Below, in pieces: positions 4,106 through 50,513 of a stretch of 64,000 bases of DNA. A model generated the notes under the pieces. It searched no databases. It was not told the origin of the DNA and saw nothing but the letters and a program-made list of their open reading frames with translations. Numbering within the stretch: position 1 is the first letter of the stretch; the number at the start of each line of letters is the position of its first letter. Source of the stretch: Candidatus Nomurabacteria bacterium (lineage in GTDB: Bacteria; Patescibacteriota; Minisyncoccia; Phycocordibacterales; UBA9973); NCBI GenBank assembly GCA_023267275.1, contig JAHFNO010000006.1, forward strand, positions 9,519 to 73,518. Direction: 5' to 3'. Both the position numbers and the translations under genes were made by a program.

Positions 4106-4933
4106 ATGGCTGACGAAGTAAAAAAAGTACCTGTTGTCTCTAGTACAACAAACACTCCATCGGTAAACGATCCTCAGTTTGACGAAATAAAAAGTGAGCT
4201 TTTTACTCGTTTCGAACTTCTTCCTGATGATATCAAAAAGGCAATTACTGATGACGGATACCAAACAAAACTCCTCACTATTGCAAAAGAACAAAAAATG
4301 ACCTATGAAGAACTTGGTATACTGGAGACAGAAACAACGATGGTACTTCTTGGAATGACAAAACCTGAAGATTATCGCGATGAACTGCAATTGCAATTGA
4401 AAAAGAACGATGCAGATATCGATACCTTGGTAAAAAAAGTAAATGAACAGGTATTCCTTCCTATCCGCGCATCACTTGAACGAGTATACGCAGCAAAAAA
4501 GGAACCAGCAGATTATATTCCGGAAAGTATTGTTACTGGGGTTGTAGAAAAAACACCTCCCACCACCCCGCCTGGAGTACCAGTCACCCCTCCTCAGGCA
4601 GGAAGGGAAATAATGAGCACACTGTCCACACAAGACAAATCAATTCTTGAAAAAACTGGTGTGGTGATCAATGAAACAAAACCTACTCCCAACCCTGTGC
4701 AAACTGCAGGAGTTGCAAATCGTAATGATTTGCTGAAGGGAATAGAAAACCCTCCAAAAGCACCGGTCATTGGAATGATGGCAAGCAAACTCAACACTAC
4801 CGGGCCAGCCATGCCAACAAAATCGACCGATTACTCAATATTGAAAAATGCGAGTACTCCACCTCCCACAAATATTCCTGTCGCACCAAAAACACAAGGA
4901 TCTGATCCGTATCGGGAACCAATCGGACACTAG
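4106..4933 (+). CDS. hypothetical protein, Pro-rich C-terminus
   Basis: Clean ORF following the terminator hairpin at 4040-4062; no recognisable motif. Confidence 0.5.
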   Translation: MADEVKKVPVVSSTTNTPSVNDPQFDEIKSELFTRFELLPDDIKKAITDDGYQTKLLTIAKEQKMTYEELGILETETTMVLLGMTKPEDYRDELQLQLKKNDADIDTLVKKVNEQVFLPIRASLERVYAAKKEPADYIPESIVTGVVEKTPPTTPPGVPVTPPQAGREIMSTLSTQDKSILEKTGVVINETKPTPNPVQTAGVANRNDLLKGIENPPKAPVIGMMASKLNTTGPAMPTKSTDYSILKNASTPPPTNIPVAPKTQGSDPYREPIGH

Positions 4934-5024
4934 AACAAGAAAACATAAAAACACGAGAACAAAAAATACAATTGTTCTCGTGTTTTGTTTTCATGATCTT
5001 GTGCTCTAGTGATATAATGACTCT

Positions 5025-5429
5025 ATGCGATTTTCTGTTCCACAATTTATTGATGTTGAGGACAAAATTTTTGGACCGCTCACGTTCAAACAATTCGTCT
5101 ATCTTGTAGGTGGGGGAGGAATGGTTTTTCTTTGCTATAAATTCTTGCCTTGGTATCTTTGGATCCCTCTTGGTCTTGGATTCGGCGGTCTCGGATTTGC
5201 ACTCGCCTTTGTTAAGGTAAATGAAAAACCGCTCATCAATACGATAGAGGCAATGTTCAATTACGGTATCAATGACAAGCTCTACGTTTGGAAGAAAGAA
5301 CACCCAACCAAAAAATCACAAGAACAAAAGAACAAGGAACAAGAAGTGCCCGTTCAATTACTCCCCCGAATTTCAGAATCCAAGTTGCACGATATAGCTT
5401 GGGGACTTGATGTTCTTGATAAGAGCTAA
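5025..5429 (+). CDS. PrgI-family (VirB3-like) small membrane protein of T4SS
   Basis: The N-terminus (VPQFIDVEDKIFGPLTFKQFVYL) is followed by two TM helices, and the gene lies immediately upstream of VirB4. A conserved TGnTATAAT promoter module ends 7 nt before the ATG. Confidence 0.5.
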   Translation: MRFSVPQFIDVEDKIFGPLTFKQFVYLVGGGGMVFLCYKFLPWYLWIPLGLGFGGLGFALAFVKVNEKPLINTIEAMFNYGINDKLYVWKKEHPTKKSQEQKNKEQEVPVQLLPRISESKLHDIAWGLDVLDKS

Positions 5430-5472
5430 AAATAAAATAACACAAGAACACTAAAACAAAAGAACAAGATAT

Positions 5473-5838
5473 ATGCAGGGAAATACTTACAGAGAAACAC
5501 TTAAAAATAAAATGGATCAGTATGTTCATTTTATTTATGGGATAACGAAATCATTTCCAAAAGAAGAAATATTCGGTTCAGTTTCTCAAATACGTAGGGC
5601 GGGGCTTTCTGTTGTTTTGAATTATACGGAGGGTTATGCACGAAGAAAACCCTTGGTTCTACTAAACTTTTATGAGATTGCATATGGCTCTCTTCAAGAG
5701 TCAAAATATTTACTTTTGTTTGCAAAAGACGAAAAATATATACCTGAGGATATATACAAAAAAGGAGAAATTATGGCAAACGAAATAGGTGCAATGCTTT
5801 GGAAAGAAATTCAATCAATAGAAAAATCTATTAAATAA
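5473..5838 (+). CDS. four-helix-bundle protein (TIGR02436, 23S rRNA IVS-like protein family)
   Basis: Family signature SQIRRAGLSVVLNYTEGYARRKPLVLLNFYEIAYGSLQESKYLLLFAKDEKYI. Confidence 0.75.
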   Translation: MQGNTYRETLKNKMDQYVHFIYGITKSFPKEEIFGSVSQIRRAGLSVVLNYTEGYARRKPLVLLNFYEIAYGSLQESKYLLLFAKDEKYIPEDIYKKGEIMANEIGAMLWKEIQSIEKSIK

Positions 5839-5884
5839 CAATTTTTGATTTAATGTTCTCTTGTTCTGGTGATATACTGTTCTC

Positions 5885-6541
5885 GTGGCTATCAGCGCAA
5901 CAGCAACTCAAGAATTTGTTCCAATCAAAGAAGTCCGTGAAGGAACCATCGTTCTTAAAGATGGTGGTCTCCGGGCTATTATTGCCGTCTCATCAGTAAA
6001 CCTTGCCCTCAAATCAAGCGACGAGCAAATTGCAACAATCAATCAATTTCAGTCATTTCTCAATTCGATCGATTTTCCTATTCAAATAGTTATTCAATCT
6101 CGCCGTCTTGATATTCGACCATATCTCCTTATGCTCGAAGGCAAAATGAAAGACCAGCACGAACCTCTCCTTAAACTACAGACCGCTGGATATATTAGTT
6201 TCATTCGTGAATTTACCGAACAAGTCGCCATCATGCGCAAATACTTTTACGTAGTTATTCCCTATGAAGAAGCAGCGATTTCAACAAAAAAAGGTTTTTT
6301 GGGTGGAATTTTTGGGAACAAACAATCTGGACAGACAAAACAAATGGCTGAAAATGCAAGCTTTGAAGAAAAGCGAACACAACTTGATGAGCGCGTAAGT
6401 GTGATCGCAAATGGACTTGGCAGTGTTGGTGCTCGTACTGAGCGCCTGCAAACGGAGGAGGTGATCGAGCTCTTCTACAAGACATTCAATCCTGGAGATA
6501 TTCAACCTGCAGTAAAACTCGCCGAAGTAGTAAATCAATAA
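5885..6541 (+). CDS. VirB4/TraE N-terminal domain encoded as a separate gene
   Basis: GTG start. Matches the CagE/TrbE/VirB4 N-domain pattern (EGTIVLKDGGLRAIIAVSSVNLALKSSDEQ ... FPIQIVIQSRRLDIRPYL ... MRKYFYVVIPYEE). It is in a different frame from the downstream ATPase gene and separated from it by a 103-nt intergenic region. Confidence 0.6.
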   Translation: MAISATATQEFVPIKEVREGTIVLKDGGLRAIIAVSSVNLALKSSDEQIATINQFQSFLNSIDFPIQIVIQSRRLDIRPYLLMLEGKMKDQHEPLLKLQTAGYISFIREFTEQVAIMRKYFYVVIPYEEAAISTKKGFLGGIFGNKQSGQTKQMAENASFEEKRTQLDERVSVIANGLGSVGARTERLQTEEVIELFYKTFNPGDIQPAVKLAEVVNQ

Positions 6542-6644: not shown

Positions 6645-8495
6645 ATGTTTTCACTATTTGGAAAAAAGAAAAACCCAGCTGGGGAATCAACCCACATTCA
6701 GGCAAACGCAATGCCTATTTTTCCTGAGCAAATTTACGAAGCAGCCTCACTTGAACTCAAAGACATCATCGCTCCTTCAGCACTCAAAATCGAACCAAAA
6801 TCAATCAACCTTGGAGACAAAATTGCACGTACCTATTTTGTTATTTCCTACCCATCAACACTCACCGACAATTGGCTCTCTCCAGTCATCAACCTCGACA
6901 AGGTATTTGATATTTCAATAACAATTCATCCTGTAGAAACTGCACAAATTCTTCGTCAATTTCAAAAGAAAGTAGCCGAGGTACAAAGCCAAATCATGGA
7001 ACGTGAAGCAAAGGGAATGGTGCGCGACCCAATGCTCGATATGGCGAACAAAAATCTTGAGGATTTGCGCGACCGTCTCACTCAAGCACAAGAAAAAATG
7101 TTTGATGTTGGACTCTATCTCACGATTTACGCCGATAACGAAACTGAATTGTATAAAATTGAAAATGAAATCAAATCAATTCTTGAATCAAAACTCATTT
7201 ACTTTAAGCCTGCACTCTTTCAGCAAGATGATGGATTTAAGAGCGTGCTTCCACTTGAAGACGATCGTTTACAGATATACCAAAAGCTCAATTCGGAGCC
7301 ACTCTCGAGTTTTTTCCCATTTGTTTCGTTTGACCTTACGAGTGACAAAGGAATTCTCTACGGTGTAAACCGCCACAATTCCTCACTCATTATTTTTGAC
7401 CGTTTCAGTCTCGACAACTACAACTCAATTATTTTTGCTACATCGGGTGCTGGAAAATCATACGCCACAAAACTCGAAGTGATTCGTTGTCTCATGTTCG
7501 ATACCGAAGTGATTGTTATCGACCCAGAACGTGAATACGAACGTCTCGCCGAAGCACTCGGTGGACGCTACTTCAATATTTCGCTCAACTCTGGAAGTCA
7601 CATCAATCCGTTTGACCTTCCGCTTCCTGGAGAGGGGGAGACGGGTAATGACGTGCTTCGCGGAAATGTCATCAATCTTGTTGGACTCTTTCGTATCATG
7701 CTTGGCGGACTTACTGCCGAAGAAGACGCGCTCGTTGATCGCGCCATAATGGAAACATATGCGGTTAAAGACATCACTCCGGATTCTGATTTTTCTCAAA
7801 TCGAACCGCCGCTTCTTTCCGATTTCGAAATGGTACTCTCGGGCATGGAAGGAACTGAATCAATCGTTTCTCGTCTTTCAAAATATACCCACGGTTCGTG
7901 GGCAGGGTTTATCAACCAGCCATCAAACGTAGACATCAACAAAAAATTTGTGGTTTTCTCTGTGCGCGACATGGAAGACGACCTCAAACCTGCAGCCATG
8001 TATATCGTGACCCACTTCATTTGGAACGAAGTTCGTAAAAATATCAAAAAACGACTGCTTGTAGTGGATGAGGCATGGTGGATGATGAAATCCGACGATA
8101 CTGCCTCGTTCTTGTACTCGATTGCAAAGCGCGGCCGCAAATATTTCTTAGGACTTGCCACAATCACTCAAGACGTCGGAGATTTTATGAAGAGCCCATA
8201 CGGTATTCCAATCGTTACGAACTCATCACTGCAACTTCTCTTGAAACAATCGCCATCAACGGTAGATGTATTGCAAAAAACATTCAACCTCACTGATGAA
8301 GAGAAATATCTGTTGCTTGAATGTAACAAGGGGGAGGGAATCTTCTTTGCTGGACTCAAACATGTGGCGATTAAAGTGATTGCCTCGTACACAGAAGACC
8401 AGCTCATCACAAGCGACCCGTCACAAATCCTAGCATTACAAAAATCAAGAACAGAACTCGCAGAAGCTGTATCTGGAACACCTCCGGTTCAATAA
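6645..8495 (+). CDS. virB4: T4SS ATPase VirB4/TraC/CagE family (C-terminal ATPase half)
   Basis: Walker A ATSGAGKSYATK, Walker B LLVVDEAWWMM, and the VirB4 middle-region motif DIIAPSALKIEPKSINLGDKIARTYFVISYP. Confidence 0.85.
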   Translation: MFSLFGKKKNPAGESTHIQANAMPIFPEQIYEAASLELKDIIAPSALKIEPKSINLGDKIARTYFVISYPSTLTDNWLSPVINLDKVFDISITIHPVETAQILRQFQKKVAEVQSQIMEREAKGMVRDPMLDMANKNLEDLRDRLTQAQEKMFDVGLYLTIYADNETELYKIENEIKSILESKLIYFKPALFQQDDGFKSVLPLEDDRLQIYQKLNSEPLSSFFPFVSFDLTSDKGILYGVNRHNSSLIIFDRFSLDNYNSIIFATSGAGKSYATKLEVIRCLMFDTEVIVIDPEREYERLAEALGGRYFNISLNSGSHINPFDLPLPGEGETGNDVLRGNVINLVGLFRIMLGGLTAEEDALVDRAIMETYAVKDITPDSDFSQIEPPLLSDFEMVLSGMEGTESIVSRLSKYTHGSWAGFINQPSNVDINKKFVVFSVRDMEDDLKPAAMYIVTHFIWNEVRKNIKKRLLVVDEAWWMMKSDDTASFLYSIAKRGRKYFLGLATITQDVGDFMKSPYGIPIVTNSSLQLLLKQSPSTVDVLQKTFNLTDEEKYLLLECNKGEGIFFAGLKHVAIKVIASYTEDQLITSDPSQILALQKSRTELAEAVSGTPPVQ

Positions 8496-40105: not shown

Positions 40106-41893
40106 ATGAATAATAATGACTATATTTCAACAACCGATCTTGCTCGCATACTAGGGGTTACCAGACAAGCCATTCAAAAAAAATTAAAGGGAGAAGATGA
40201 GCTAAAAACCAAAGAAGTTGGTACTGGTTTTTTATATCAAATTGGGAGTTTACCTCAATCTATTAGAGATAGAATAAAAACAGAACAAGAAACAGCCAAG
40301 GAAAAAGCAATTTCGAAAAAAATCGGTGATAACCATCATGATCTTAATTTTGAGAAAGAGCTTTGGGCAGCCGCAGACAAACTCCGTGGAAATATCGATG
40401 TTTCCGAATATAAAAATATTGTTCTCGGACTTCTTTTTTTAAAATATATTTCTGATTCATTTTACAAGCGTCGTGAAGAACTTGAAGTGATGACTCGTGA
40501 TACCAAAAATGAGGATTTTTATGTTCCAAATGATGAATCACGCAAGCAGATTCTTGAGACAAAAGATTTTTACACGAGCGTTGGAGTTTTTTATGTTCCT
40601 GAAAAATCCCGTTGGGAATATCTTCAAACAAAAATATTGAACCCAGAATTGGCAAAAATTCTTGATGGCGCGATGGATTTGATTGAACAAGATAATCGAG
40701 CCCAACTCGAGGGAGTTCTTCCGAAAGTGTATACAAAAACGACTCTTGATCACGCGGTGCTTGGCGAACTAGTTAATATTTTTTCTCGGATTTCTTTTGA
40801 TCACAATTTCGACAGAGAAAAAGATATCCTTGGTCGCATCTATGAATATTTCCTTGGGCAGTTTGCTTCATCCGAGGGAAAACGTGGAGGTGAGTTTTTT
40901 ACTCCACGATCAATCGTTAAACTACTCGTAGAAATTCTTGAACCATATGAAAACGCGCGTGTCTTAGATCCTGCTTGTGGTAGCGGAGGTATGTTTGTAT
41001 CTATGGGTGAATATTTACATACTCATAAAATGGATCCATCAAAACTTTCTATAAGCGGACAGGAAAGCAATCAAACTACGCTTCGTCTTGCGAAAATGAA
41101 TCTTGCAATTCGGGGGCTTTCGGGGAAAATTGAGCTGGGAAACACTTACTATCAGGATAAGTTTCCAAACCTTCAAGCTGATTTTGTGATTGCCAATCCT
41201 CCGTTTAATGGCGAATGGGAACCGTCAAAACTTTCAGATAATGACCCTCGTATTATTCTTGGCACTCCGCCGTCTGGTAATGCAAATTTTATGTGGGTGC
41301 AACATTTTGCTCATCACCTTGCTCCGAATGGTCAGGCAGGGTTTGTTATGCCGAATGGCGCGCTTGCAGTGTCAGGTAAAGAAGGAGATTTGCGAAAAAA
41401 ATTAATCGAGGCAGATTTGGTCGACGTAATCATTTCTTGTCCCGGAAAACTTTTTTATAACGTTTCGCTTCCAGTTTCTTTATGGTTTTTGGCAAAAAAT
41501 AAATCCGGCGACCGCTTTCGTAAACGAAAAGGGGAAACACTCTTTATTGATGCGCGCGACACCTTTGAACAAATTTCACGCAAGCAAGTTGTTTTTAATC
41601 CTAAAAATATTGAGAAAATTACAAATACTGTTCGCGCATGGCGAGGAGAAAAAGGTGCCGATAAGTATGAAAATATTGCCGGTTTTTGTAAATCTGCAGC
41701 TCTGAAGGAAATTGAAAAAAATGGGTATGTACTTACTCCCGGCCGATATGTTGGGCTTGCGGATGTCGAAGATGATGGAATTTCATTTGAAGAAAAAATG
41801 CAAAAGCTTTCCAGCGAACTTCGTGCCGCTTTTCTGAAGGGTCGAGATTTGGAAAAACAGATTGAAAATAATTTGAAAGAATTGGGATTTTAA
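40106..41893 (+). CDS. hsdM: type I restriction-modification system methyltransferase subunit HsdM (with extra N-terminal HTH-like segment)
   Basis: Catalytic NPPFNG motif (VIANPPFNGEW) and an AdoMet-binding region. Confidence 0.85.
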   Translation: MNNNDYISTTDLARILGVTRQAIQKKLKGEDELKTKEVGTGFLYQIGSLPQSIRDRIKTEQETAKEKAISKKIGDNHHDLNFEKELWAAADKLRGNIDVSEYKNIVLGLLFLKYISDSFYKRREELEVMTRDTKNEDFYVPNDESRKQILETKDFYTSVGVFYVPEKSRWEYLQTKILNPELAKILDGAMDLIEQDNRAQLEGVLPKVYTKTTLDHAVLGELVNIFSRISFDHNFDREKDILGRIYEYFLGQFASSEGKRGGEFFTPRSIVKLLVEILEPYENARVLDPACGSGGMFVSMGEYLHTHKMDPSKLSISGQESNQTTLRLAKMNLAIRGLSGKIELGNTYYQDKFPNLQADFVIANPPFNGEWEPSKLSDNDPRIILGTPPSGNANFMWVQHFAHHLAPNGQAGFVMPNGALAVSGKEGDLRKKLIEADLVDVIISCPGKLFYNVSLPVSLWFLAKNKSGDRFRKRKGETLFIDARDTFEQISRKQVVFNPKNIEKITNTVRAWRGEKGADKYENIAGFCKSAALKEIEKNGYVLTPGRYVGLADVEDDGISFEEKMQKLSSELRAAFLKGRDLEKQIENNLKELGF

Positions 41894-41897
41894 ATTT

Positions 41898-42563
41898 ATG
41901 GATTTGCAAGACTTAAAAAAGAAGTTTATCAAAGATGAGCTACAGATCACCGAAGATTACGGGAAGATTTTCGCTTTCATCGATTTCTCAAATGTAAATA
42001 AGTGGTTTCAAAACGACAACCAGGATTGGGAGAACAAACTACTTGCTCTCGATGAAAAGTTATCAATAGACTTAGAAAAACTAAAATTATTCGTGGATAT
42101 TTTTAGTGAGAGAGCTAGAATCTACTATGGAGAAAATCCTAAAAACCAAAAGTCTCTCAGTTTTACCTATGTTATGCGGAAAGTTTTTGGCAAGAGAGAT
42201 GTAATGACCAAAGACATTCAAAAAATTAGGCATTATTTTGAGACGGGCGAACATATTCCTGATAAATATGTTGAAACAGACGCAGATGGTAAAAAATTTA
42301 TAGAAATCAGAAAATCAAATTTTGATGTAGAGATTTCTGTAGATGCACTAAGGATGCTTGAACACTATGATACCTTCTGTATTTTTTCCGGAGATGCTGA
42401 TTTTGTGTATTTAAATAATTACTTAAAACGAAAAGGTAAGAAAGTGATTATAGTGAAGGGTGGATATATTTTGACAAAATTCAGAGAGTCGGCTGATTTA
42501 GTCGTAAATGCGCAGAATATTAAGAAGCATATTGCCAAGGTAGAAAAACAAAAACCTGACTAG
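41898..42563 (+). CDS. NYN/LabA-like (PIN-fold) nuclease-domain protein embedded in type I RM operon
   Basis: FIDFSNV ... EISVDALRMLEHYDTFCIFSGDADFVYLNNYLKRKGKKVIIV fits the NYN-domain acidic-residue pattern. It sits 4 nt after the hsdM stop. Confidence 0.5.
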   Translation: MDLQDLKKKFIKDELQITEDYGKIFAFIDFSNVNKWFQNDNQDWENKLLALDEKLSIDLEKLKLFVDIFSERARIYYGENPKNQKSLSFTYVMRKVFGKRDVMTKDIQKIRHYFETGEHIPDKYVETDADGKKFIEIRKSNFDVEISVDALRMLEHYDTFCIFSGDADFVYLNNYLKRKGKKVIIVKGGYILTKFRESADLVVNAQNIKKHIAKVEKQKPD

Positions 42564-42667
42564 GTCAGGTTTTTGTGGAAAGTCATCCCGAATTGACCTC
42601 GGGCAGGTATGGAAGGAGTATAACATTCACCACCCTCAAAATCAAGAGTTATCAACAGAACAAAAAT

Positions 42668-43912
42668 ATGAGCAAATTATTGGAACAAATAAAAAAAAAT
42701 AAAGAAACCAAGCGATTGGGGGATTTAGTTGTGATCAATCAATCGTCAATCACAAAGGATTTTCCGCATAAAGTCATTGAGTATATTGATACTTCTTCTG
42801 TGACACGAAATTCTTTTGATAAACCAGAAATTCTGAATATAAACGAAGCCCCGAGTCGAGCAAAACGATTGGTTAAAGACGGAGACACGATACTTTCTAC
42901 AGTAAGGCCCAGCCAGCATCATTATGGTTTTATCCGAGCTCCTAAACCAAACACAATTGTTTCAACAGGATTTGCTGTCCTGACTCCCCAAAACGATATT
43001 GATCCATTTTATTTATATTCATATTTAACTCAGGATTCAGTGACAAGTATTCTGAATGCGATAGCCGAAGCAACTACCACGACCTTCCCAGCATTTAGAC
43101 CTGAAGTTCTTTCAGATATGGAAATAGAAATTCCGGATCTACCAACTCAAAAGAAAATTGCAGAAATTTTGGGCGCTTATGACGCAAAGATTGAGAATAA
43201 CAATCAAATAATAAAAAATCTTGAATTGACGGCACAAACTATTTTCGATGAATGGTTTGTAAAATTTCGATTTCCTGGGCATGGGAAAGTGAAAATGGTT
43301 GAGAGTGAAATGGGGGAGATTCCTGAAGGGTGGGAAGTAAAGAAGGTTTCTGATGTTGCTCATCTTAACAAGGGTGTTTCTTATACATCAGCCGAAATAA
43401 ACACTGAGCATAAAGGTGCAGCGTTAATTAATCTAGGAAACTTTCTGAGAGGAGGAGGTTTTAATTCTGATGGAATAAAATATTACACAGGCGAATATAA
43501 ATCAACCCATATTGTAAAACCCGGACAAATTTTAATTGCTATGACTGATTTAACTTCCAACAGAGAAGTCATTGGTCATCCAGCTAGACTGCCTGAAAAT
43601 TTTAAGGAAGCTGTAATTTCTCTTGATGTCTGTTCTCTTAGCCCCGGAAAAGATATATATCTTGAATTTATCTACAATTCTATGCTGAAGAGAAGTTTTT
43701 CTAAATTGATGGCTAGTTGTGCGTCCGGAACAAATGTTTCTCATCTCAAGAAAGAAAACATTGAAGGATATGATCTAATATTTCCCGAGGAATCATTATT
43801 GGTTCAATTTAACAATTTTACGCAACCCGTTTTTACCAAACAAGCTATCTTAGAAGAAGAAAATCAAAGATTAAAACAGTCGAGAGATCAATTACTGGCA
43901 AAACTAATTTAA
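42668..43912 (+). CDS. hsdS: type I RM specificity subunit HsdS (two target-recognition domains)
   Basis: Position between hsdM and hsdR; two-TRD architecture with conserved central and C-terminal coiled regions. The Met at 42668 is preferred to the ORF-track start at 42575. Confidence 0.7.
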   Translation: MSKLLEQIKKNKETKRLGDLVVINQSSITKDFPHKVIEYIDTSSVTRNSFDKPEILNINEAPSRAKRLVKDGDTILSTVRPSQHHYGFIRAPKPNTIVSTGFAVLTPQNDIDPFYLYSYLTQDSVTSILNAIAEATTTTFPAFRPEVLSDMEIEIPDLPTQKKIAEILGAYDAKIENNNQIIKNLELTAQTIFDEWFVKFRFPGHGKVKMVESEMGEIPEGWEVKKVSDVAHLNKGVSYTSAEINTEHKGAALINLGNFLRGGGFNSDGIKYYTGEYKSTHIVKPGQILIAMTDLTSNREVIGHPARLPENFKEAVISLDVCSLSPGKDIYLEFIYNSMLKRSFSKLMASCASGTNVSHLKKENIEGYDLIFPEESLLVQFNNFTQPVFTKQAILEEENQRLKQSRDQLLAKLI

Positions 43913-43917
43913 ATTTT

Positions 43918-44598
43918 ATGGATAAAACTAATTTAACTGAATTCCAACAATACTTATATGATCAACACAAGGAAACATCTGAAATGAGGTCAAAATTCGG
44001 GCGTGAATTCCTGACTATTTTTAGCAATGCCAATAAATCAAGGATTGAACTTTCTAAACATATCACCATGCTCACTGTTGGATTGCTTGCTGTGGGTGTT
44101 TTTTGGCAAACTGGAAGTTTATATGCGAAGGTTGGATTTGGTTTTGCGCTGATAACTATTGTTTTTACCGTATTCTTTCTACGCGAAAGAATTGATCAAG
44201 AGGGAAGAGAAGCTGTAACGATGATAAAGGTTTACAATGCGATGTTTGATAAATACCTTAGCATAATTCTCGCAGCAGTTAAAAAAGATAACCCCAAAGA
44301 ATATTTCCAAAACCTAAATAATTTTCTCGAGAAAGATCCTGATTTTTTGAACATTCAGAATAATTACGAAAGTAGTTTAATTAGAAACGAGATTCTTGAT
44401 TACGGTGGAGAAGTCGTGAATTTTCTATTTCTTTCTACACTAACATTCTATGTATTAGCTTTTTTATCAATCCAGTTTAATTTTATTTTGGTAGTATTAG
44501 TTATCACCCTTACTTTTTCATTTTCAGTATTTGAAACAGCAAGTTTTATTCTCCGACCTTTAAATAGATGGTTAAATAAAAATATATCTAGGAAATAA
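43918..44598 (+). CDS. hypothetical 4-TM membrane protein inside the RM locus
   Basis: Hydrophobic helices (LTVGLLAVGVFW, FGFALITIVFTVFFL, two C-terminal); no known motif. Confidence 0.5.
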   Translation: MDKTNLTEFQQYLYDQHKETSEMRSKFGREFLTIFSNANKSRIELSKHITMLTVGLLAVGVFWQTGSLYAKVGFGFALITIVFTVFFLRERIDQEGREAVTMIKVYNAMFDKYLSIILAAVKKDNPKEYFQNLNNFLEKDPDFLNIQNNYESSLIRNEILDYGGEVVNFLFLSTLTFYVLAFLSIQFNFILVVLVITLTFSFSVFETASFILRPLNRWLNKNISRK

Positions 44599-44599
44599 T

Positions 44600-44666
44600 A
44601 TGAACCCCTCAACGAAAAAAACATAGCGGAAGAATCCCTCATCGACTGGCTGAAAGGTGAGGGGGG
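44600..44666 (+). pseudogene. degenerate duplicate of the hsdR 5' end (frameshifted fragment)
   Basis: About 65 nt are near-identical to 45890-45956 but one C is missing from the C-run, so it reads MNPSTKKT-stop. Confidence 0.7.
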
Positions 44667-44754
44667 TGAATACTCAAAAACCAACTTTTAATATACCTTT
44701 ACTTATTAAAAGTTAAATGCTAAACTTTTAATATAAATAATCATATTATAACTT

Positions 44755-45885
44755 ATGCAACAAATATTTAAAGCAGGTATATATAGACAACAACTGGAAT
44801 ACAAGAGTTTCAGCCCTTTTCCTATCAATAAACAATTTGAGTGGACTGATAAGAAAATAAATATGCTTTCAGATGAGGCTATGCGTCTTTTGGGTGAACT
44901 TAATGCTTATTCCACACTCGTTCCTGATGTGAATTATTTTATAAAAATGCACATCGCAAAAGAAGCGACGAAATCAAGCCGAATTGAAGGTACAAAAACA
45001 AATATCGATGAAGTGCTTCTTTCTAAAGAAGATGTTGATCCTGAACGACGAGATGATTGGAAGGAGGTGCATAATTATATTGTAGCGATGAATCAGGCAA
45101 TAAAAGAACTCTCAACCCTACCACTTTCAATGCGTCTTTTGAAAAACGCTCATAAAATACTTTTAACACACGTGCGCGGAGAGCACAAAACCCCAGGGGA
45201 GATTCGCATCAGTCAAAATTGGATAGGTGGTTCAAGTCTAAAAGACGCGTTCTTTATACCACCTCATCCAAGTGAAGTTGGAGAACTTATTTCTGATCTT
45301 GAAAAATTTTGGCACAACAGAAATCTTGAAATTCCATTCCTAATAAAAATGGCAATAAGTCATTATCAGTTTGAGACAATTCACCCGTTCCTAGATGGCA
45401 ACGGAAGAATAGGACGACTGCTCATTACTTTGCAGTTAGTTGATAAAAAGATACTCCAGAGACCGACCTTGTATCTTTCCGATTTTTTTGAAAGAAACAA
45501 AGGTTCGTATTATGATTCGCTGACCCTTGTTCGTTCTTCTAACAATATAGAGCAATGGATTAAATTTTTTCTTTCAGGTGTAATTGAAACAGCCCATAAG
45601 GGTAAGGAAACATTTGAAAAAATAATCGTATTGCGCCAAAAATATGAGCAAAAAATCATGAAATTGGGTCGTCGAGCCGAACTCGGACAGCGGTTGCTAA
45701 TTAAACTCTTTTCTCAACCGATATTAAATGTAAATCAGATTGCAAAGGAATTGGATATTACATTTCCTACAGCATCGTCGCTTGTGGACGAGTTTGAGCA
45801 AAAAGGCATTCTAAAGGAAGTTACCGGTTTTTCAAGAAACCGTTCTTTTGAGTTGTTTGAGTATGTTGAATTGTTTAGGAATTAA
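44755..45885 (+). CDS. fic: Fic/DOC family protein (AMPylation-type motif)
   Basis: Fic motif [12 protein letters not shown]; C-terminal winged-helix-like region. Confidence 0.85.
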
Positions 45886-45889
45886 TTAT

Positions 45890-48800
45890 ATGAACCCCCT
45901 CAACGAAAAAAACATAGCGGAAGAATCCCTCATCGACTGGCTGAAAGGCGAGGGGTATGAGTATGTAAAAGGTACAGATATCGCCCCGGGGCAGCCTCGT
46001 GCGGAGCGCGAGGATTTCCGGGGTGTGGTTTTAAAAGACCGCCTGCTTGGAGCTATTCGTAGGATCAATCCACAACTGCCTGCTGAACAGGCGGAACAAG
46101 TTGTTGTCGATATTGCCTCGTATCACAATGCTGATTTAATGCTCGGAAACAAGGAGATGTTTTCTTTTATTACAGAAGGAGTAAAAAGGACTTGGCAAGA
46201 ACAAGGAAATGAAAAAACAGAAATAGTAAAGTTGATTGATTTCGAGAATAAAGATGCGAATGAGTTCCTTGTAGTCAATCAATTTACGGTGCAGGGGGTT
46301 GACTCACTCGGTCGTCCCGATGTCGTTATTTTCATAAATGGATTGCCACTTGCGGTGTTCGAGCTGAAGAGCCCGGTACGACAAACCGCTGATATCCGTG
46401 AGGCATACAGAGATATTGAGGATTACAAAAAAGAAATACCGAAACTTTTTTTCTACAACCAGATTGTAGCGATTTCGGATTTATTCCACGCGCATCATGG
46501 AACGATCTCATCTTCGTGGGAACGTTATGGCACATGGAAGGGAATAAAAAATGAAACTGATGTTCCGAAAGATACAGAGGAACTCGAAGTGTTATTGAAA
46601 GGGCTTTTCAATAAGGAGCGGCTTTTGGATGTGATCGAAAACTTTATTGTTTTTGAAGCAAGTGGTGATGGTGATGCCGTAACATATACAAAAAAGATGT
46701 GTTTGTATCATCAGTATTATGGTGTCAATAAAACAATTGAGAGTACGATTCGCTCAGTTCTCGGCAAGCAAGATAGAAAAATCGGCGTATTTTGGCACAC
46801 ACAAGGATCAGGCAAATCGCTCTCAATGGTTTTTTATGTGAACAAAACAAAAAATATACCTGAGCTCAAAAGTCCGGCGTATGTGTTTTTGACTGATCGT
46901 GAAGATTTAGACGACCAGTTGTTTAAGACATTCAATCACACCGGATATGGAACTCTAGCCAAGAAGGCCTCAAGCATCAAAGATTTGCGCAGTCGACTTA
47001 CGTATATTGGCGGGGAACTTATTTTCACGACAATTCAAAAGTTTCAAGAAGATCCTGACGCGCATGAGGCCTTGAGTTTGCGCGAGAACATTATTGTTTT
47101 GGCCGACGAAGCGCACCGCACGCAGTATAGCAATCTGGCAGGCAATGTTCGTCTTGCACTGCCGAATGCGAGTTTTTTGGGAGTCACAGGTACGCCGATT
47201 GCTCGGAATGACAAAGATACAGTACGGGTGTTTGGCCCAGTTGTGAGTTCGTATAAGATCAGTCAATCAGTCAAAGACAAATCAACCGTGCCAATTTATT
47301 ACGAGGGGCGGCTTGTGCCACTCCATCTCGCTGATCAATTAATCGACAGCAAATTCGACGCGGTTCTCGGTGAAGTTGTGCCGGATGATAACGCACGAAT
47401 GCGTAAGGAGTATGCAGTGCTTGAGGAAGTCGTGGGCGCACCGAGCCGAATAGAGAAAATCGCACAGGATGTCATACATCATTTTAATAATCATCCAATT
47501 GAAGGTAAGGCCATGATTGTGACGATGAGCCGCCGAATCGCGGTGCTTATGTATGAGGCCATCCAAAAGATACCTAGTGTTCCAGAAGTGGCAGTCGTGA
47601 TTTCAAACAACGATGAATATAGTTCAAGAATTCAAAAGGAACATAATATAAAAACTTTAGAGCGAAGGTTTAAAGATGACAAAGATCCGCTCAAAATCGC
47701 CATTCTTTGTGATATGTGGCTCACCGGTTTTGACGTTCCGTGTATGCATACACTGTATCTCGATAAGCCTCTCAAAAATCATGGCTTGATGCAGGCGATA
47801 GCTCGCGTGAATCGAGTGTATAAAGACAAGCCAGGAGGTTTGGTTGTGGACTATATTGGTATTGCAGAGAATTTGAAAAAAGCACTTGCGTGGTATGACT
47901 CCGACATACAAAATGATGCGCTTGTTCCTATTTCCGAAGTTGTAGAGCAAATGAATATTCTCCGTGATCAAGTCACCAAATTTTTCGGGAAACTCGACTA
48001 TACTGCATGGAAGAAACTAAAAGGTATTGAGCTTGTCACAATTATGCAGGCAGGAATGAATGAGGTCATCACTCAAGGTGGCATATTAAATGACGAACAG
48101 AAGATGAAATACATGGGTACAGTTTCTAAGCTTTCAAAATTACACGCACTTGTAATGCCGGGGGATGAAGCTATGAAAATAATATCGGATCTCCAATTTT
48201 TTCAGGCTATACGAGAGGCAATTCGCAAACAAACTGTTTTGCCGCATGCGATATTCCCTGAAGAAACGGAAAGCGCGATTCGTAGCCTGATGCATAATTC
48301 AATTCAGGCTGAGGGCATCGTTGATCTTTTTAGCGTCCCAGGAGAAGAGAAGAAAAGTATTTCGATATTTGATGAGAAGTTTATTGAAGGTATCCGAAAA
48401 TCACACTACCAGAATTTTGCAGTCGATTCTGTGCGAAAATTGCTCGATCAGGAAATACGATCACGAATGCGATTGAATAATGCTCGATACGAAACAATGC
48501 TCTCGCTTCTTGAGGGTTTGATTGAAAAATATGAGAACAATGTAATTAGTTCTGCTGAAATTATAAAGCAGTTGCTTGAAATTGCAGATGGTATTAAAAA
48601 GCTAGATCAAGAAAGTAAGGAAACAGGACTCTCGAATGAAGAAATTGTTTTTTATGATTCTTTAGCCACCGACCCTGATCTAAAAAAAGCCGGAATTGAT
48701 ATTAAAGAATTTGTAAAGGAATTAACAAGGCGTATTCGACGTGATTTGGCAATCGATTGGACAAACAATGAAACAATCAAAGCTCGTATTCGTCAGAATG

Positions 48801-48919
48801 TGAGATTACTTTTATTACAAAAAGGGATTGTTGAGGAGATGCAGACGAAGCGACTAATTGAGTCGATATATCAAGAGACAGTAAGAGTATATAGAGGATT
48901 TTTACCTACAGTCTTATAA
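45890..48919 (+). CDS. hsdR: type I restriction enzyme R subunit HsdR
   Basis: N-terminal nuclease region; SF2 helicase motifs (GSGKS-like P-loop, DEAH-box VLADEAHRTQY); ~1010 aa. Confidence 0.85.
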   Translation: MNPLNEKNIAEESLIDWLKGEGYEYVKGTDIAPGQPRAEREDFRGVVLKDRLLGAIRRINPQLPAEQAEQVVVDIASYHNADLMLGNKEMFSFITEGVKRTWQEQGNEKTEIVKLIDFENKDANEFLVVNQFTVQGVDSLGRPDVVIFINGLPLAVFELKSPVRQTADIREAYRDIEDYKKEIPKLFFYNQIVAISDLFHAHHGTISSSWERYGTWKGIKNETDVPKDTEELEVLLKGLFNKERLLDVIENFIVFEASGDGDAVTYTKKMCLYHQYYGVNKTIESTIRSVLGKQDRKIGVFWHTQGSGKSLSMVFYVNKTKNIPELKSPAYVFLTDREDLDDQLFKTFNHTGYGTLAKKASSIKDLRSRLTYIGGELIFTTIQKFQEDPDAHEALSLRENIIVLADEAHRTQYSNLAGNVRLALPNASFLGVTGTPIARNDKDTVRVFGPVVSSYKISQSVKDKSTVPIYYEGRLVPLHLADQLIDSKFDAVLGEVVPDDNARMRKEYAVLEEVVGAPSRIEKIAQDVIHHFNNHPIEGKAMIVTMSRRIAVLMYEAIQKIPSVPEVAVVISNNDEYSSRIQKEHNIKTLERRFKDDKDPLKIAILCDMWLTGFDVPCMHTLYLDKPLKNHGLMQAIARVNRVYKDKPGGLVVDYIGIAENLKKALAWYDSDIQNDALVPISEVVEQMNILRDQVTKFFGKLDYTAWKKLKGIELVTIMQAGMNEVITQGGILNDEQKMKYMGTVSKLSKLHALVMPGDEAMKIISDLQFFQAIREAIRKQTVLPHAIFPEETESAIRSLMHNSIQAEGIVDLFSVPGEEKKSISIFDEKFIEGIRKSHYQNFAVDSVRKLLDQEIRSRMRLNNARYETMLSLLEGLIEKYENNVISSAEIIKQLLEIADGIKKLDQESKETGLSNEEIVFYDSLATDPDLKKAGIDIKEFVKELTRRIRRDLAIDWTNNETIKARIRQNVRLLLLQKGIVEEMQTKRLIESIYQETVRVYRGFLPTVL

Positions 48920-50210: not shown

Positions 50211-50513
50211 ACCCGCACACTTACTTTTTTATTACTCTCATGTTTTATGTATATGTTTTGAAAAGTAAAAAAGATGAAGAATTGTACATTGGTTCAACCA
50301 ATGATCTTAAGCGTAGAATAAAAGAACATGAGAGTGGAGAGAGTTTTTCAACAAAGCTGAGGAGACCTTTTGATTTAATTTATTACGAAGCATATAAAGA
50401 TGAGAAGGACGCAAGAAAGAGAGAGTCATCATTGAAACTTCGTGGAAGGTCTCGTTTTCATTTAATGCAAAGATTAAAAAACTCTCTCCTATAAAAAAGT
50501 AAGTGTGCGGGTA
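50211..50513 (+). mobile_element. GIY-YIG gene bracketed by perfect 20-bp inverted repeats (putative mini mobile element)
   Basis: Left inverted repeat ACCCGCACACTTACTTTTTT at 50211-50230; its exact reverse complement at 50494-50513; the CDS between them is GIY-YIG. Confidence 0.55.
50240..50494 (+). CDS. GIY-YIG (URI-domain) nuclease family protein, 84 aa
   Basis: MFYVYVLKSKKDEELYIGSTNDLKRRIKEHESGE ... matches the short stand-alone GIY-YIG family. Confidence 0.8.
   Translation: MFYVYVLKSKKDEELYIGSTNDLKRRIKEHESGESFSTKLRRPFDLIYYEAYKDEKDARKRESSLKLRGRSRFHLMQRLKNSLL

Follow-up and report, generated by a model that had tools for sequence, protein, structure and literature searches.

The 64,000-nt stretch of DNA analysed here (the window; contig JAHFNO010000006.1 of assembly GCA_023267275.1, Candidatus Nomurabacteria bacterium) contains a Type I restriction-modification (RM) operon in which a fic gene lies directly 5' of hsdR and is bracketed by two copies of the 5' end of hsdR. 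The operon is flanked by polA on one side and by a block of PEMT, holA-like, and GIY-YIG genes on the other. Its genes are arranged on the plus strand in the order hsdM, NYN gene, hsdS, orf5, fic, and hsdR, and the assignment to Type I follows from hsdM, hsdS, and hsdR, which carry the characteristic Pfam domains and share one strand. Downstream of hsdS, the 226-aa cargo gene orf5 (43918–44598) is followed by the left copy of the repeat (44600–44664), a leader (44676–44754), fic (44755–45885), and an intact hsdR of 1009 aa (45890–48919; Pfam HSDR_N, SWI2_SNF2, T1R_D3-like, and T1RH-like_C), all on the plus strand. The right copy of the repeat (45890–45955) is the functional 5' end of hsdR itself, and what lies between the two copies is a conserved leader of ~75 nt plus fic.

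The original prediction of a direct duplication of the hsdR start, about 65 nt long, was confirmed by alignment: 44600–44664 (65 nt) matches 45890–45955 (66 nt, hsdR nt 1–66). An identical 50-nt core (44608–44657 and 45899–45948) occurs only at these two places in the window, and a shuffle control gave 0 matches in 100 shuffles. The copies differ by one C (C4 at 44606–44609 versus C5 at 45896–45900) and by T/C at nt 59/60, so that their identity is 98%, compared with 87–97% for the corresponding repeats at other loci, and they have 7 substitutions in common that are private with respect to the rest of the family. As had been predicted, the upstream copy, lacking one C, is frameshifted and reads MNPSTKKT-stop, and two antisense open reading frames (ORFs) share the peptide SPFSQSMRDSSAMFFSLRG. 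An nhmmer profile of hsdR 5' ends matches 44601–44673 (E = 1.6e-13). Beyond the repeat, 44665–44679 agrees with 45956–45970 at only 8 of 15 positions, a doubtful extension, and the secure boundary is therefore placed after GAGGGG. The similarities of 44665–44679 to hsdR nt 67–81 (the same 8/15) and to a motif in the 3' untranslated region (3'UTR) of DUF3800 genes (GTGGATAAGTCAAAAA) were both judged not significant. A collapsed or chimeric repeat might be suspected in a metagenome-assembled genome of the Candidate Phyla Radiation (CPR). However, the assemblies from two other samples (L125, and L145 with 0 mismatches over 11,030 nt) are identical here, three assemblies from different samples thus agreeing across the region, and analogous structures are present in many independent contigs. 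The chance of an assembly artefact is accordingly negligible.

The fic gene is the only plus-strand ORF of at least 50 aa between the repeats. Its product consists of Fic_N, Fic, and winged helix-turn-helix (wHTH) domains and is of the SoFic type, as indicated by Pfam (Fic_N and Fic), PADLOC (SoFic, 3.2e-117), and PDB (SoFic, 5e-34). It possesses the HxFx(D/E)GNGRxxR motif required of SoFic as well as the inhibitory helix motif (S/T)xxxE(G/N) in the N-terminal part (SSRIEG, residues ~74–79), in line with the usual understanding of class II Fic proteins. A definition of this class is provided by PMC3667792. SoFic itself has been described as a toxic anti-phage protein (PMC12249575). Judged by its domains and motifs, the fic of the window is a self-contained, SoFic-like defence module.

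The ~75 nt preceding fic show conservation across 13 CPR loci, which include both RM and non-RM contexts. They contain two palindromes (44683–44692/44705–44714 and 44723–44734/44743–44754) built from the same half-site, AACTTnnAAT, which flank a putative −35 element (TTTACT, 44698–44703) and a putative extended −10 element (TGCTAAACT, 44718–44726) spaced by 17 nt. In the 13-locus alignment, the palindrome arms covary (81.7% paired versus at most 41% in slid controls, with 0 of 500 shuffles reaching the observed value), and 10 pairs have changed on both sides. The central bases also covary between the two palindromes of one locus, being TT/TT in the window and GG/GG in L037. With a score of 8/12, the putative promoter of the leader was below the threshold of the sigma-70 scan and was not flagged by it, and no known RNA family was found in 44300–46100 using Rfam. 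The leader probably comprises a promoter of its own and two operators for the wHTH domain of Fic, an arrangement that would allow autoregulation. To our knowledge, such a conserved double-palindrome leader has no earlier description.

The relatives of this hsdR (68–83% amino acid identity) belong nearly all to Patescibacteria/CPR genomes, and their loci follow a common plan, hsdM-(slot)-hsdS-(slot)-hsdR, in which the slots are filled with very diverse cargo. A profile of hsdR nt 1–120 was run over the related loci, and the same duplication proved to be present in at least eight other RM loci. The recurring anatomy consists of an upstream context, hsdR nt 1–x, a cargo gene, and an intact hsdR, where x is 27–70 and the cargo is fic, RhuM, or DUF3800. 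The cargo fic is preceded by nt 1–66 in the window, by nt 1–67 in L037–L039, and by nt 1–70 in both L127 and L129–L131; RhuM is preceded by nt 1–62 in L007. In L005, L023, and L026, and also in another L037 copy, nt 1–27 to ~40 form the in-frame beginning of DUF3800 (nt 1–32 in the second copy of L037–L039). Finally, nt 1–40 of an hsdR of a different family, with 1 mismatch to the hsdR of the same locus, precede fic in L128. The L128 fic is 91% identical to that of the window and stands before an hsdR of the L124-type N-terminus family; the hsdR of L124 is 31% identical to that of the window. We regard L128 as decisive for the local origin of the remnant. The remnant of L026 also matches its own unusual hsdR start, MTNKLNEN.

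The fused genes, which open with the first 9–13 codons of hsdR (MNPINENN..., or MTNKLNEN... in L026), are located at 877–1614 in L005, 9152–9904 in L023, 9163–9915 in L026, and 5010–5759 in L037. In these cases, the DUF3800 cargo has captured the start codon and the ribosome-binding site of hsdR through the same duplication.

Extra copies of the hsdR 5' end occur in some loci only, and always just 5' of hsdR-adjacent cargo. Among loci with an hsdR start in a species-level genome sample, a recognisable remnant was found in 4 of 23 with cargo in the hsdS–hsdR slot and in 0 of 6 without cargo. The original prediction would have failed if the similarity were a conserved regulatory leader located upstream of many hsdR genes. 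This explanation is ruled out, as the extra copies stand only before cargo and the similarity is to the coding 5' end of hsdR, whose conservation within the family reflects the encoded N-terminus, MNP(I/L)NENNLTEQSLIDWL. A related possibility is that the upstream copy is kept for a function, either as an upstream ORF that couples ribosomes from orf5 to the fic leader or as a regulatory leader for fic or hsdR. Its ATG is located 1 nt past the orf5 stop codon, and the copies in L127 and L129 are ORFs of 40 and 34 codons, respectively, that end just before fic. However, neither length nor frame is conserved (8 codons in the window versus 34–40 elsewhere), repeat identity falls to 87–89% in L127 and L129, and L040, L042, and L140, with leader and fic intact, lack the copy. 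No Rfam match was obtained, and conservation of the peptide or of a remnant-leader structure across loci was not seen. A retained function is thus highly improbable. The repeat in itself is an ordinary recombination scar without likely function, and we think that the left copy rather probably represents the first ~65 nt of hsdR, displaced and left as a remnant without function, which marks the seam between the orf5 and leader-fic modules.

The two junctions of the fic module behave differently. The right junction, composed of the fic TAA, 2–5 nt, and the hsdR ATG, is constant in the window, L037, L040, L127, L128, and L129. The left junction varies on both sides, at hsdR nt 40, 62, 66, 67, or 70 on the target side and from 1 to about 18 nt ahead of the first palindrome on the leader side. 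The left copy retains the upstream context that hsdR had before the event: the orf5 stop codon in the window, a DUF3800 3'UTR in L037, L129, and L007, and a 357-aa gene in L127. The anchor-gene fragment therefore lies between variable modules, with one junction constant and the other variable, as expected for a displacement remnant. The original prediction, a fic cassette inserted at or recombined into the hsdR start with duplication of the target, stands insofar as this is a footprint of cargo recombination at the hsdR start; a target-site duplication made by a cassette is disfavoured, because all relatives share one junction between the fic stop codon and the hsdR ATG and the other junction varies.

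Sites without fic were also found. The hsdR junction lacking fic that was sought in relatives is represented by orf5 directly joined to hsdR in L124, a distant genome with an hsdR of another family; it was the only one found, and its orf5 (80% identity) is the sole homologue of orf5 that we detected. The empty sites of L003 and L020, in which a DUF3800 3'UTR is joined to hsdR, line up base by base with the occupied sites of L037 and L129 as far as nt ~70. Mirror remnants are present in the hsdM–hsdS slot, where the last 41–77 nt of hsdM have been copied before cargo (L006 7323–7364, NYN; L127 1189–1265, Bro-N). In L037, which contains two remnants, the identity to hsdR is 95.5% for the inner and 90.9% for the outer remnant. 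In addition, the L129 fic is closest to that of L040 (0.90 nucleotide identity) and the L129 hsdR is closest to that of L037 (0.92); the genealogies of fic and hsdR thus disagree.

Known insertion machinery does not account for these structures. Pfam searches found no recombinase or transposase between hsdM and the GIY-YIG gene, no integrase was found in 37.6–50.5 kb, and no terminal inverted repeat joins 44680–44700 to 45870–45889. The repeats are not short duplications of fixed length but measure 27–80 nt, or 196 nt in L042, and vary from locus to locus; nor is there a constant crossover site of the att type, as the junctions vary and the targets are unrelated. As for an integron, intI was not found in the neighbourhood scanned, and no attC-like 3' site was seen, although the search included no attC model. 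The 3' limit of the cassette lies 4 nt past the fic stop codon, and the palindromes lie 5', overlapping the promoter-like element. Transposition, integron-type insertion, and att-type insertion are excluded as tested, since machinery and terminal repeats are absent and neither the repeat lengths nor the junctions are fixed.

We favour the reading that the repeat probably arose when RM alleles that differed in cargo recombined unequally, by homology within hsdR and by an illegitimate join at the opposite end. This reading is supported by the recurrence of the structure, the local origin of the remnants, the asymmetry of the junctions, the empty sites, the mirror remnants, the reshuffling of fic and hsdR, the stacking order, the absence of mobility genes, and precedent. 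In the starting state, orf5 and leader-fic would each at one time have stood directly 5' of an hsdR, in separate alleles. Two Type I RM alleles with different cargo would then have recombined unequally, probably after DNA uptake. One crossover would have been homologous, inside the conserved hsdR (or, symmetrically, hsdS/hsdM), and the other join illegitimate, fusing one allele at hsdR nt ~66 to sequence immediately 5' of the fic leader in the other. Selection would have retained those products in which orf5, fic, and the full hsdR were all intact. Because the genes are only 1–4 nt apart, the illegitimate join would be confined to the first tens of bases of hsdR and would leave a short direct repeat. 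The in-frame DUF3800 fusions would represent the analogous solution, in which the cargo borrows the start codon of hsdR. As the structure is symmetric, it is equally possible that orf5 with the hsdR fragment was the incoming piece.

Several points weigh against this reading. Both the recombination pathway and the donor partner are ones that we infer by comparing loci. No donor allele was found: the closest fic has 94% protein identity, with near-saturation at synonymous sites. As to microhomology, the illegitimate joins showed only weak similarities. The family-1 joins on the target side cluster at nt 62–70 and could represent a single ancestral junction that was later trimmed and gene-converted. 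Such clustering is what one ancient insertion of leader-fic at hsdR nt ~66–70 would give, if it was followed by vertical inheritance, gene conversion between the repeats, and small deletions. In the window, identity is perfect over nt 10–58 and then falls, resembling a conversion tract, and left copies resemble their own hsdR and not the left copies of other genomes. However, the upstream context differs between loci (orf5, the DUF3800 3'UTR, or the 357-aa gene), the L128 structure arose independently in an hsdR of another family, the pattern is also found with RhuM and DUF3800, and L040 has fic–hsdR without a remnant. The conflict between the fic and hsdR phylogenies, with a hint that the remnant-bearing loci are not monophyletic, also speaks against a single ancient insertion, which we consider improbable.

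The remaining difficulty lies in the frequency of the repeats. Using 70 Fic homologues (52–94% identity) on varied contigs, with repeats sought within 600 nt upstream and 300 nt downstream and ORFs of 200–600 aa from the same loci as controls, we found that direct repeats bracket 11 of the 70 homologues versus 8 of 421 other ORFs, more than would obviously be predicted by a purely passive model. Several of the 8 bracketed control ORFs are themselves RM cargo. The repeats derive from local neighbours that are unrelated to one another: the 5' end of RadC (L066), the 5' end of another HsdR family (L092), the 5' region of HsdM (L093), and the 3' end of a glycosyltransferase gene (L084). This excess would fit a reading in which fic, like other embedded cargo, is a mobile cassette, excised as a circle by recombination of its flanking repeats and integrated into hsdR 5' ends by a Campbell-type single crossover or, in a variant, inserted through dedicated machinery that leaves long duplications of the target; the repeat would then be a working pair of portable homology arms and more than a scar. 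A near-identity over 65–70 nt is enough for RecA recombination. In L132, a 5' gene fragment at 739–795 (MATLNWTGKEAVVKVVWD), whose peptide may resemble the N-terminus of a DNA methyltransferase, precedes the fic leader and has no counterpart in the gene that now lies downstream, as if it had moved together with fic. There is also a precedent in E. coli, where a circle carrying part of its target yields such a duplication by single crossover (PMC3240628). On the other hand, the junctions differ between loci on both sides, whereas an inherited circle would keep one of them, and both copies in L128 are of the local hsdR type, which is not expected from the homologous integration of a foreign circle. 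Moreover, no integrase, transposase, or terminal repeat was found, and 19 of the 23 cargo-bearing loci have no remnant. We regard a mobile cassette of this kind as unlikely. A broader proposal, that SoFic-type, DUF3800, and RhuM genes are integrase-free mobile cassettes using a duplicated piece of a neighbour as portable homology, is more doubtful still. If it were true, such cassettes would loop out and re-enter anchor genes, Type I RM operons would act as integron-like collectors of defence genes, and the order of the remnants would record the order of acquisition.

The original prediction took the repeat to mark fic as a recent acquisition. The higher identity of the two copies in the window than elsewhere indicates that the event, or the last homogenisation, was recent, and the repeat is therefore young or homogenised; the recency of fic is unsupported, fic–hsdR adjacency being widespread. 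The protein identity of fic to hundreds of CPR homologues (80–94%) had suggested a recent horizontal transfer, but this was ruled out by the third-codon-position identity, which is 0.54–0.63 to every known relative, not far from the 0.47–0.51 of hsdR, and points to a deep divergence of fic under purifying selection. The linkage of fic with hsdR is old. No fic-less version of the exact locus was found, the exact hsdR and orf5 proteins occurring only in contigs of the same structure. A metagenome scan with Fic returned mostly distant homologues (52–70%) in other contexts, which gave little help on the donor and exposed the wider repeat pattern. A loss of fic by crossover in the 50-nt tract would, we infer, usually bring the C4 frameshift into hsdR and abolish restriction.

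The other genes of the operon also carry information on its cargo. The methyltransferase gene hsdM (40106–41893, plus strand; Pfam N6_Mtase 8e-102, HsdM_N) is followed in the hsdM–hsdS slot by the NYN-domain cargo gene (41898–42563, plus strand; Pfam NYN, 3e-14). The latter is 92–95% identical to the NYN genes of L006 (7368–8030) and L015 (7146–7808), where hsdM is 76–78% identical; the NYN cargo is thus, like fic, better conserved than the surrounding RM genes. The hsdS gene (42668–43912, plus strand; Pfam Methylase_S) has an N-terminus that is kept across loci. Its conserved MSKLLEQI begins at 42668, and the GTG at 42575, where the mechanically called ORF begins, is probably not the real start. 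The gap of ~105 nt between the NYN stop codon (42563) and the hsdS start (42668) has the same length in L006, L015, and L037. No Pfam or PADLOC match was obtained for orf5. Other cargo in this locus family includes RhuM (PDC-S05), DUF3800, a PD-T7-4-like gene, and NYN. A stand-alone GIY-YIG gene of 84 aa (50240–50494) recurs within a few kb of RM/fic loci in several genomes (L015 4587–4784, L026 2387–2632, L031 5980–6177, and L068 6828–7076).

Some additional fic loci deserve mention. In L040, which contains no hsdR remnant, the sequence after hsdS (5848–5915) looks, on inspection by eye, like the final ~36 nt of a DUF3800 gene (…GQEIQPRL*), which suggests that an earlier cargo was deleted there. 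In L042, three copies of a 61-aa lysine-rich ORF (4158–4343, 5665–5850, and 7193–7378) are located around a DUF4325/HATPase gene and fic, two of them 92% identical over 196 nt. This locus has lost hsdR, and its fic is followed by ATGAAC, possibly the last trace of hsdR. In L136, fic with the same leader lies between paralogous genes of ~570 aa (1210–2922 and 4271–5980) that have a 63-nt 5'-proximal stretch in common (1266–1328 versus 4333–4395, 89% identical). Distant SoFic-type genes (55–67%) bracketed by repeats of 36–100 nt are present in genomes unrelated to one another, in L066, L082, L084, L092, L093, L099, L113, L115, and L051, and the sources of these repeats include non-coding hairpins.

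The recurrence of the footprint over cargo types, slots, and hsdR families makes it a helpful clue to how embedded defence genes accumulate. Reports of such genes in RM, BREX, and Hma operons are by now common, and the footprint, a datable fragment of the hsdR 5' end or the hsdM 3' end at cargo seams, offers a concrete and testable route, namely RM-anchored recombination that needs no mobile-element machinery. For annotation, short "ORFs" that repeat the start of hsdR should be treated as scars that mark cassette boundaries.

The fic of the window shares its domain architecture and its catalytic and inhibitory motifs with SoFic, a class II Fic AMP-transferase (PDB 3EQX and 3ZCN; PMC12249575); the likeness is known here from sequence, and activity and a role in defence are predicted. 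The presence of defence genes as cargo in an RM operon is a known phenomenon. The SoFic, RhuM (PDC-S05), DUF3800, NYN, and PD-T7-4-like genes placed between hsdM, hsdS, and hsdR are embedded in the same manner as the defence genes described in Type I RM, BREX, and Hma systems (TgvAB, PMC11411939; Payne et al. 2024, bioRxiv 10.1101/2024.01.29.577857). A term search of these two sources found no account of how the embedding arises or of anchor-gene remnants. Integron cassette arrays are similar in the promoter- or anchor-proximal stacking of single-gene cassettes. The loci studied here differ from integrons in lacking an integrase and an attC-like 3' site, in having junctions that vary, and in carrying repeats that come from the target gene. 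Homology-facilitated illegitimate recombination, which was reportedly described by de Vries and Wackernagel in 2002, and single-crossover integration (PMC3240628) are also comparable. One-sided homology with an illegitimate join, or a circle of partial homology, gives an insertion that has a duplicated part of the homologous gene at its flanks. Those are laboratory events with duplications of 109–950 bp, whereas the evidence here is comparative and concerns duplications of 27–80 nt, filtered by selection in a compact operon.

The scar described here is a mirror-image variant of known displacement remnants. Displacement and orphan-module arrays are said to have been reported by Jackson in 2009 for Rhs, CDI (contact-dependent growth inhibition), and type VI secretion system (T6SS) effector-immunity loci. 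In those arrays, as in the RM loci, a conserved anchor gene is combined with a variable slot, recombination is homologous in the anchor and illegitimate at the other end, and incoming modules shift the older ones away along with a piece of the anchor, so that the arrays grow without an integrase. For the orphan arrays of T6SS and Rhs, the same displacement logic was put forward by Kirchberger in 2017 (PMC5361080). The differences lie in polarity and in cargo. The Rhs, CDI, and T6SS loci have a conserved 5' core, and their 3' tips are displaced downstream; in the present loci the anchor is hsdR, and a remnant of its 5' end is left upstream. The cargo consists of toxin tips and immunity genes in the former and of unrelated defence genes in the latter, and only in the RM loci does the remnant donate a start codon to the cargo, as in the DUF3800 fusions of some loci.

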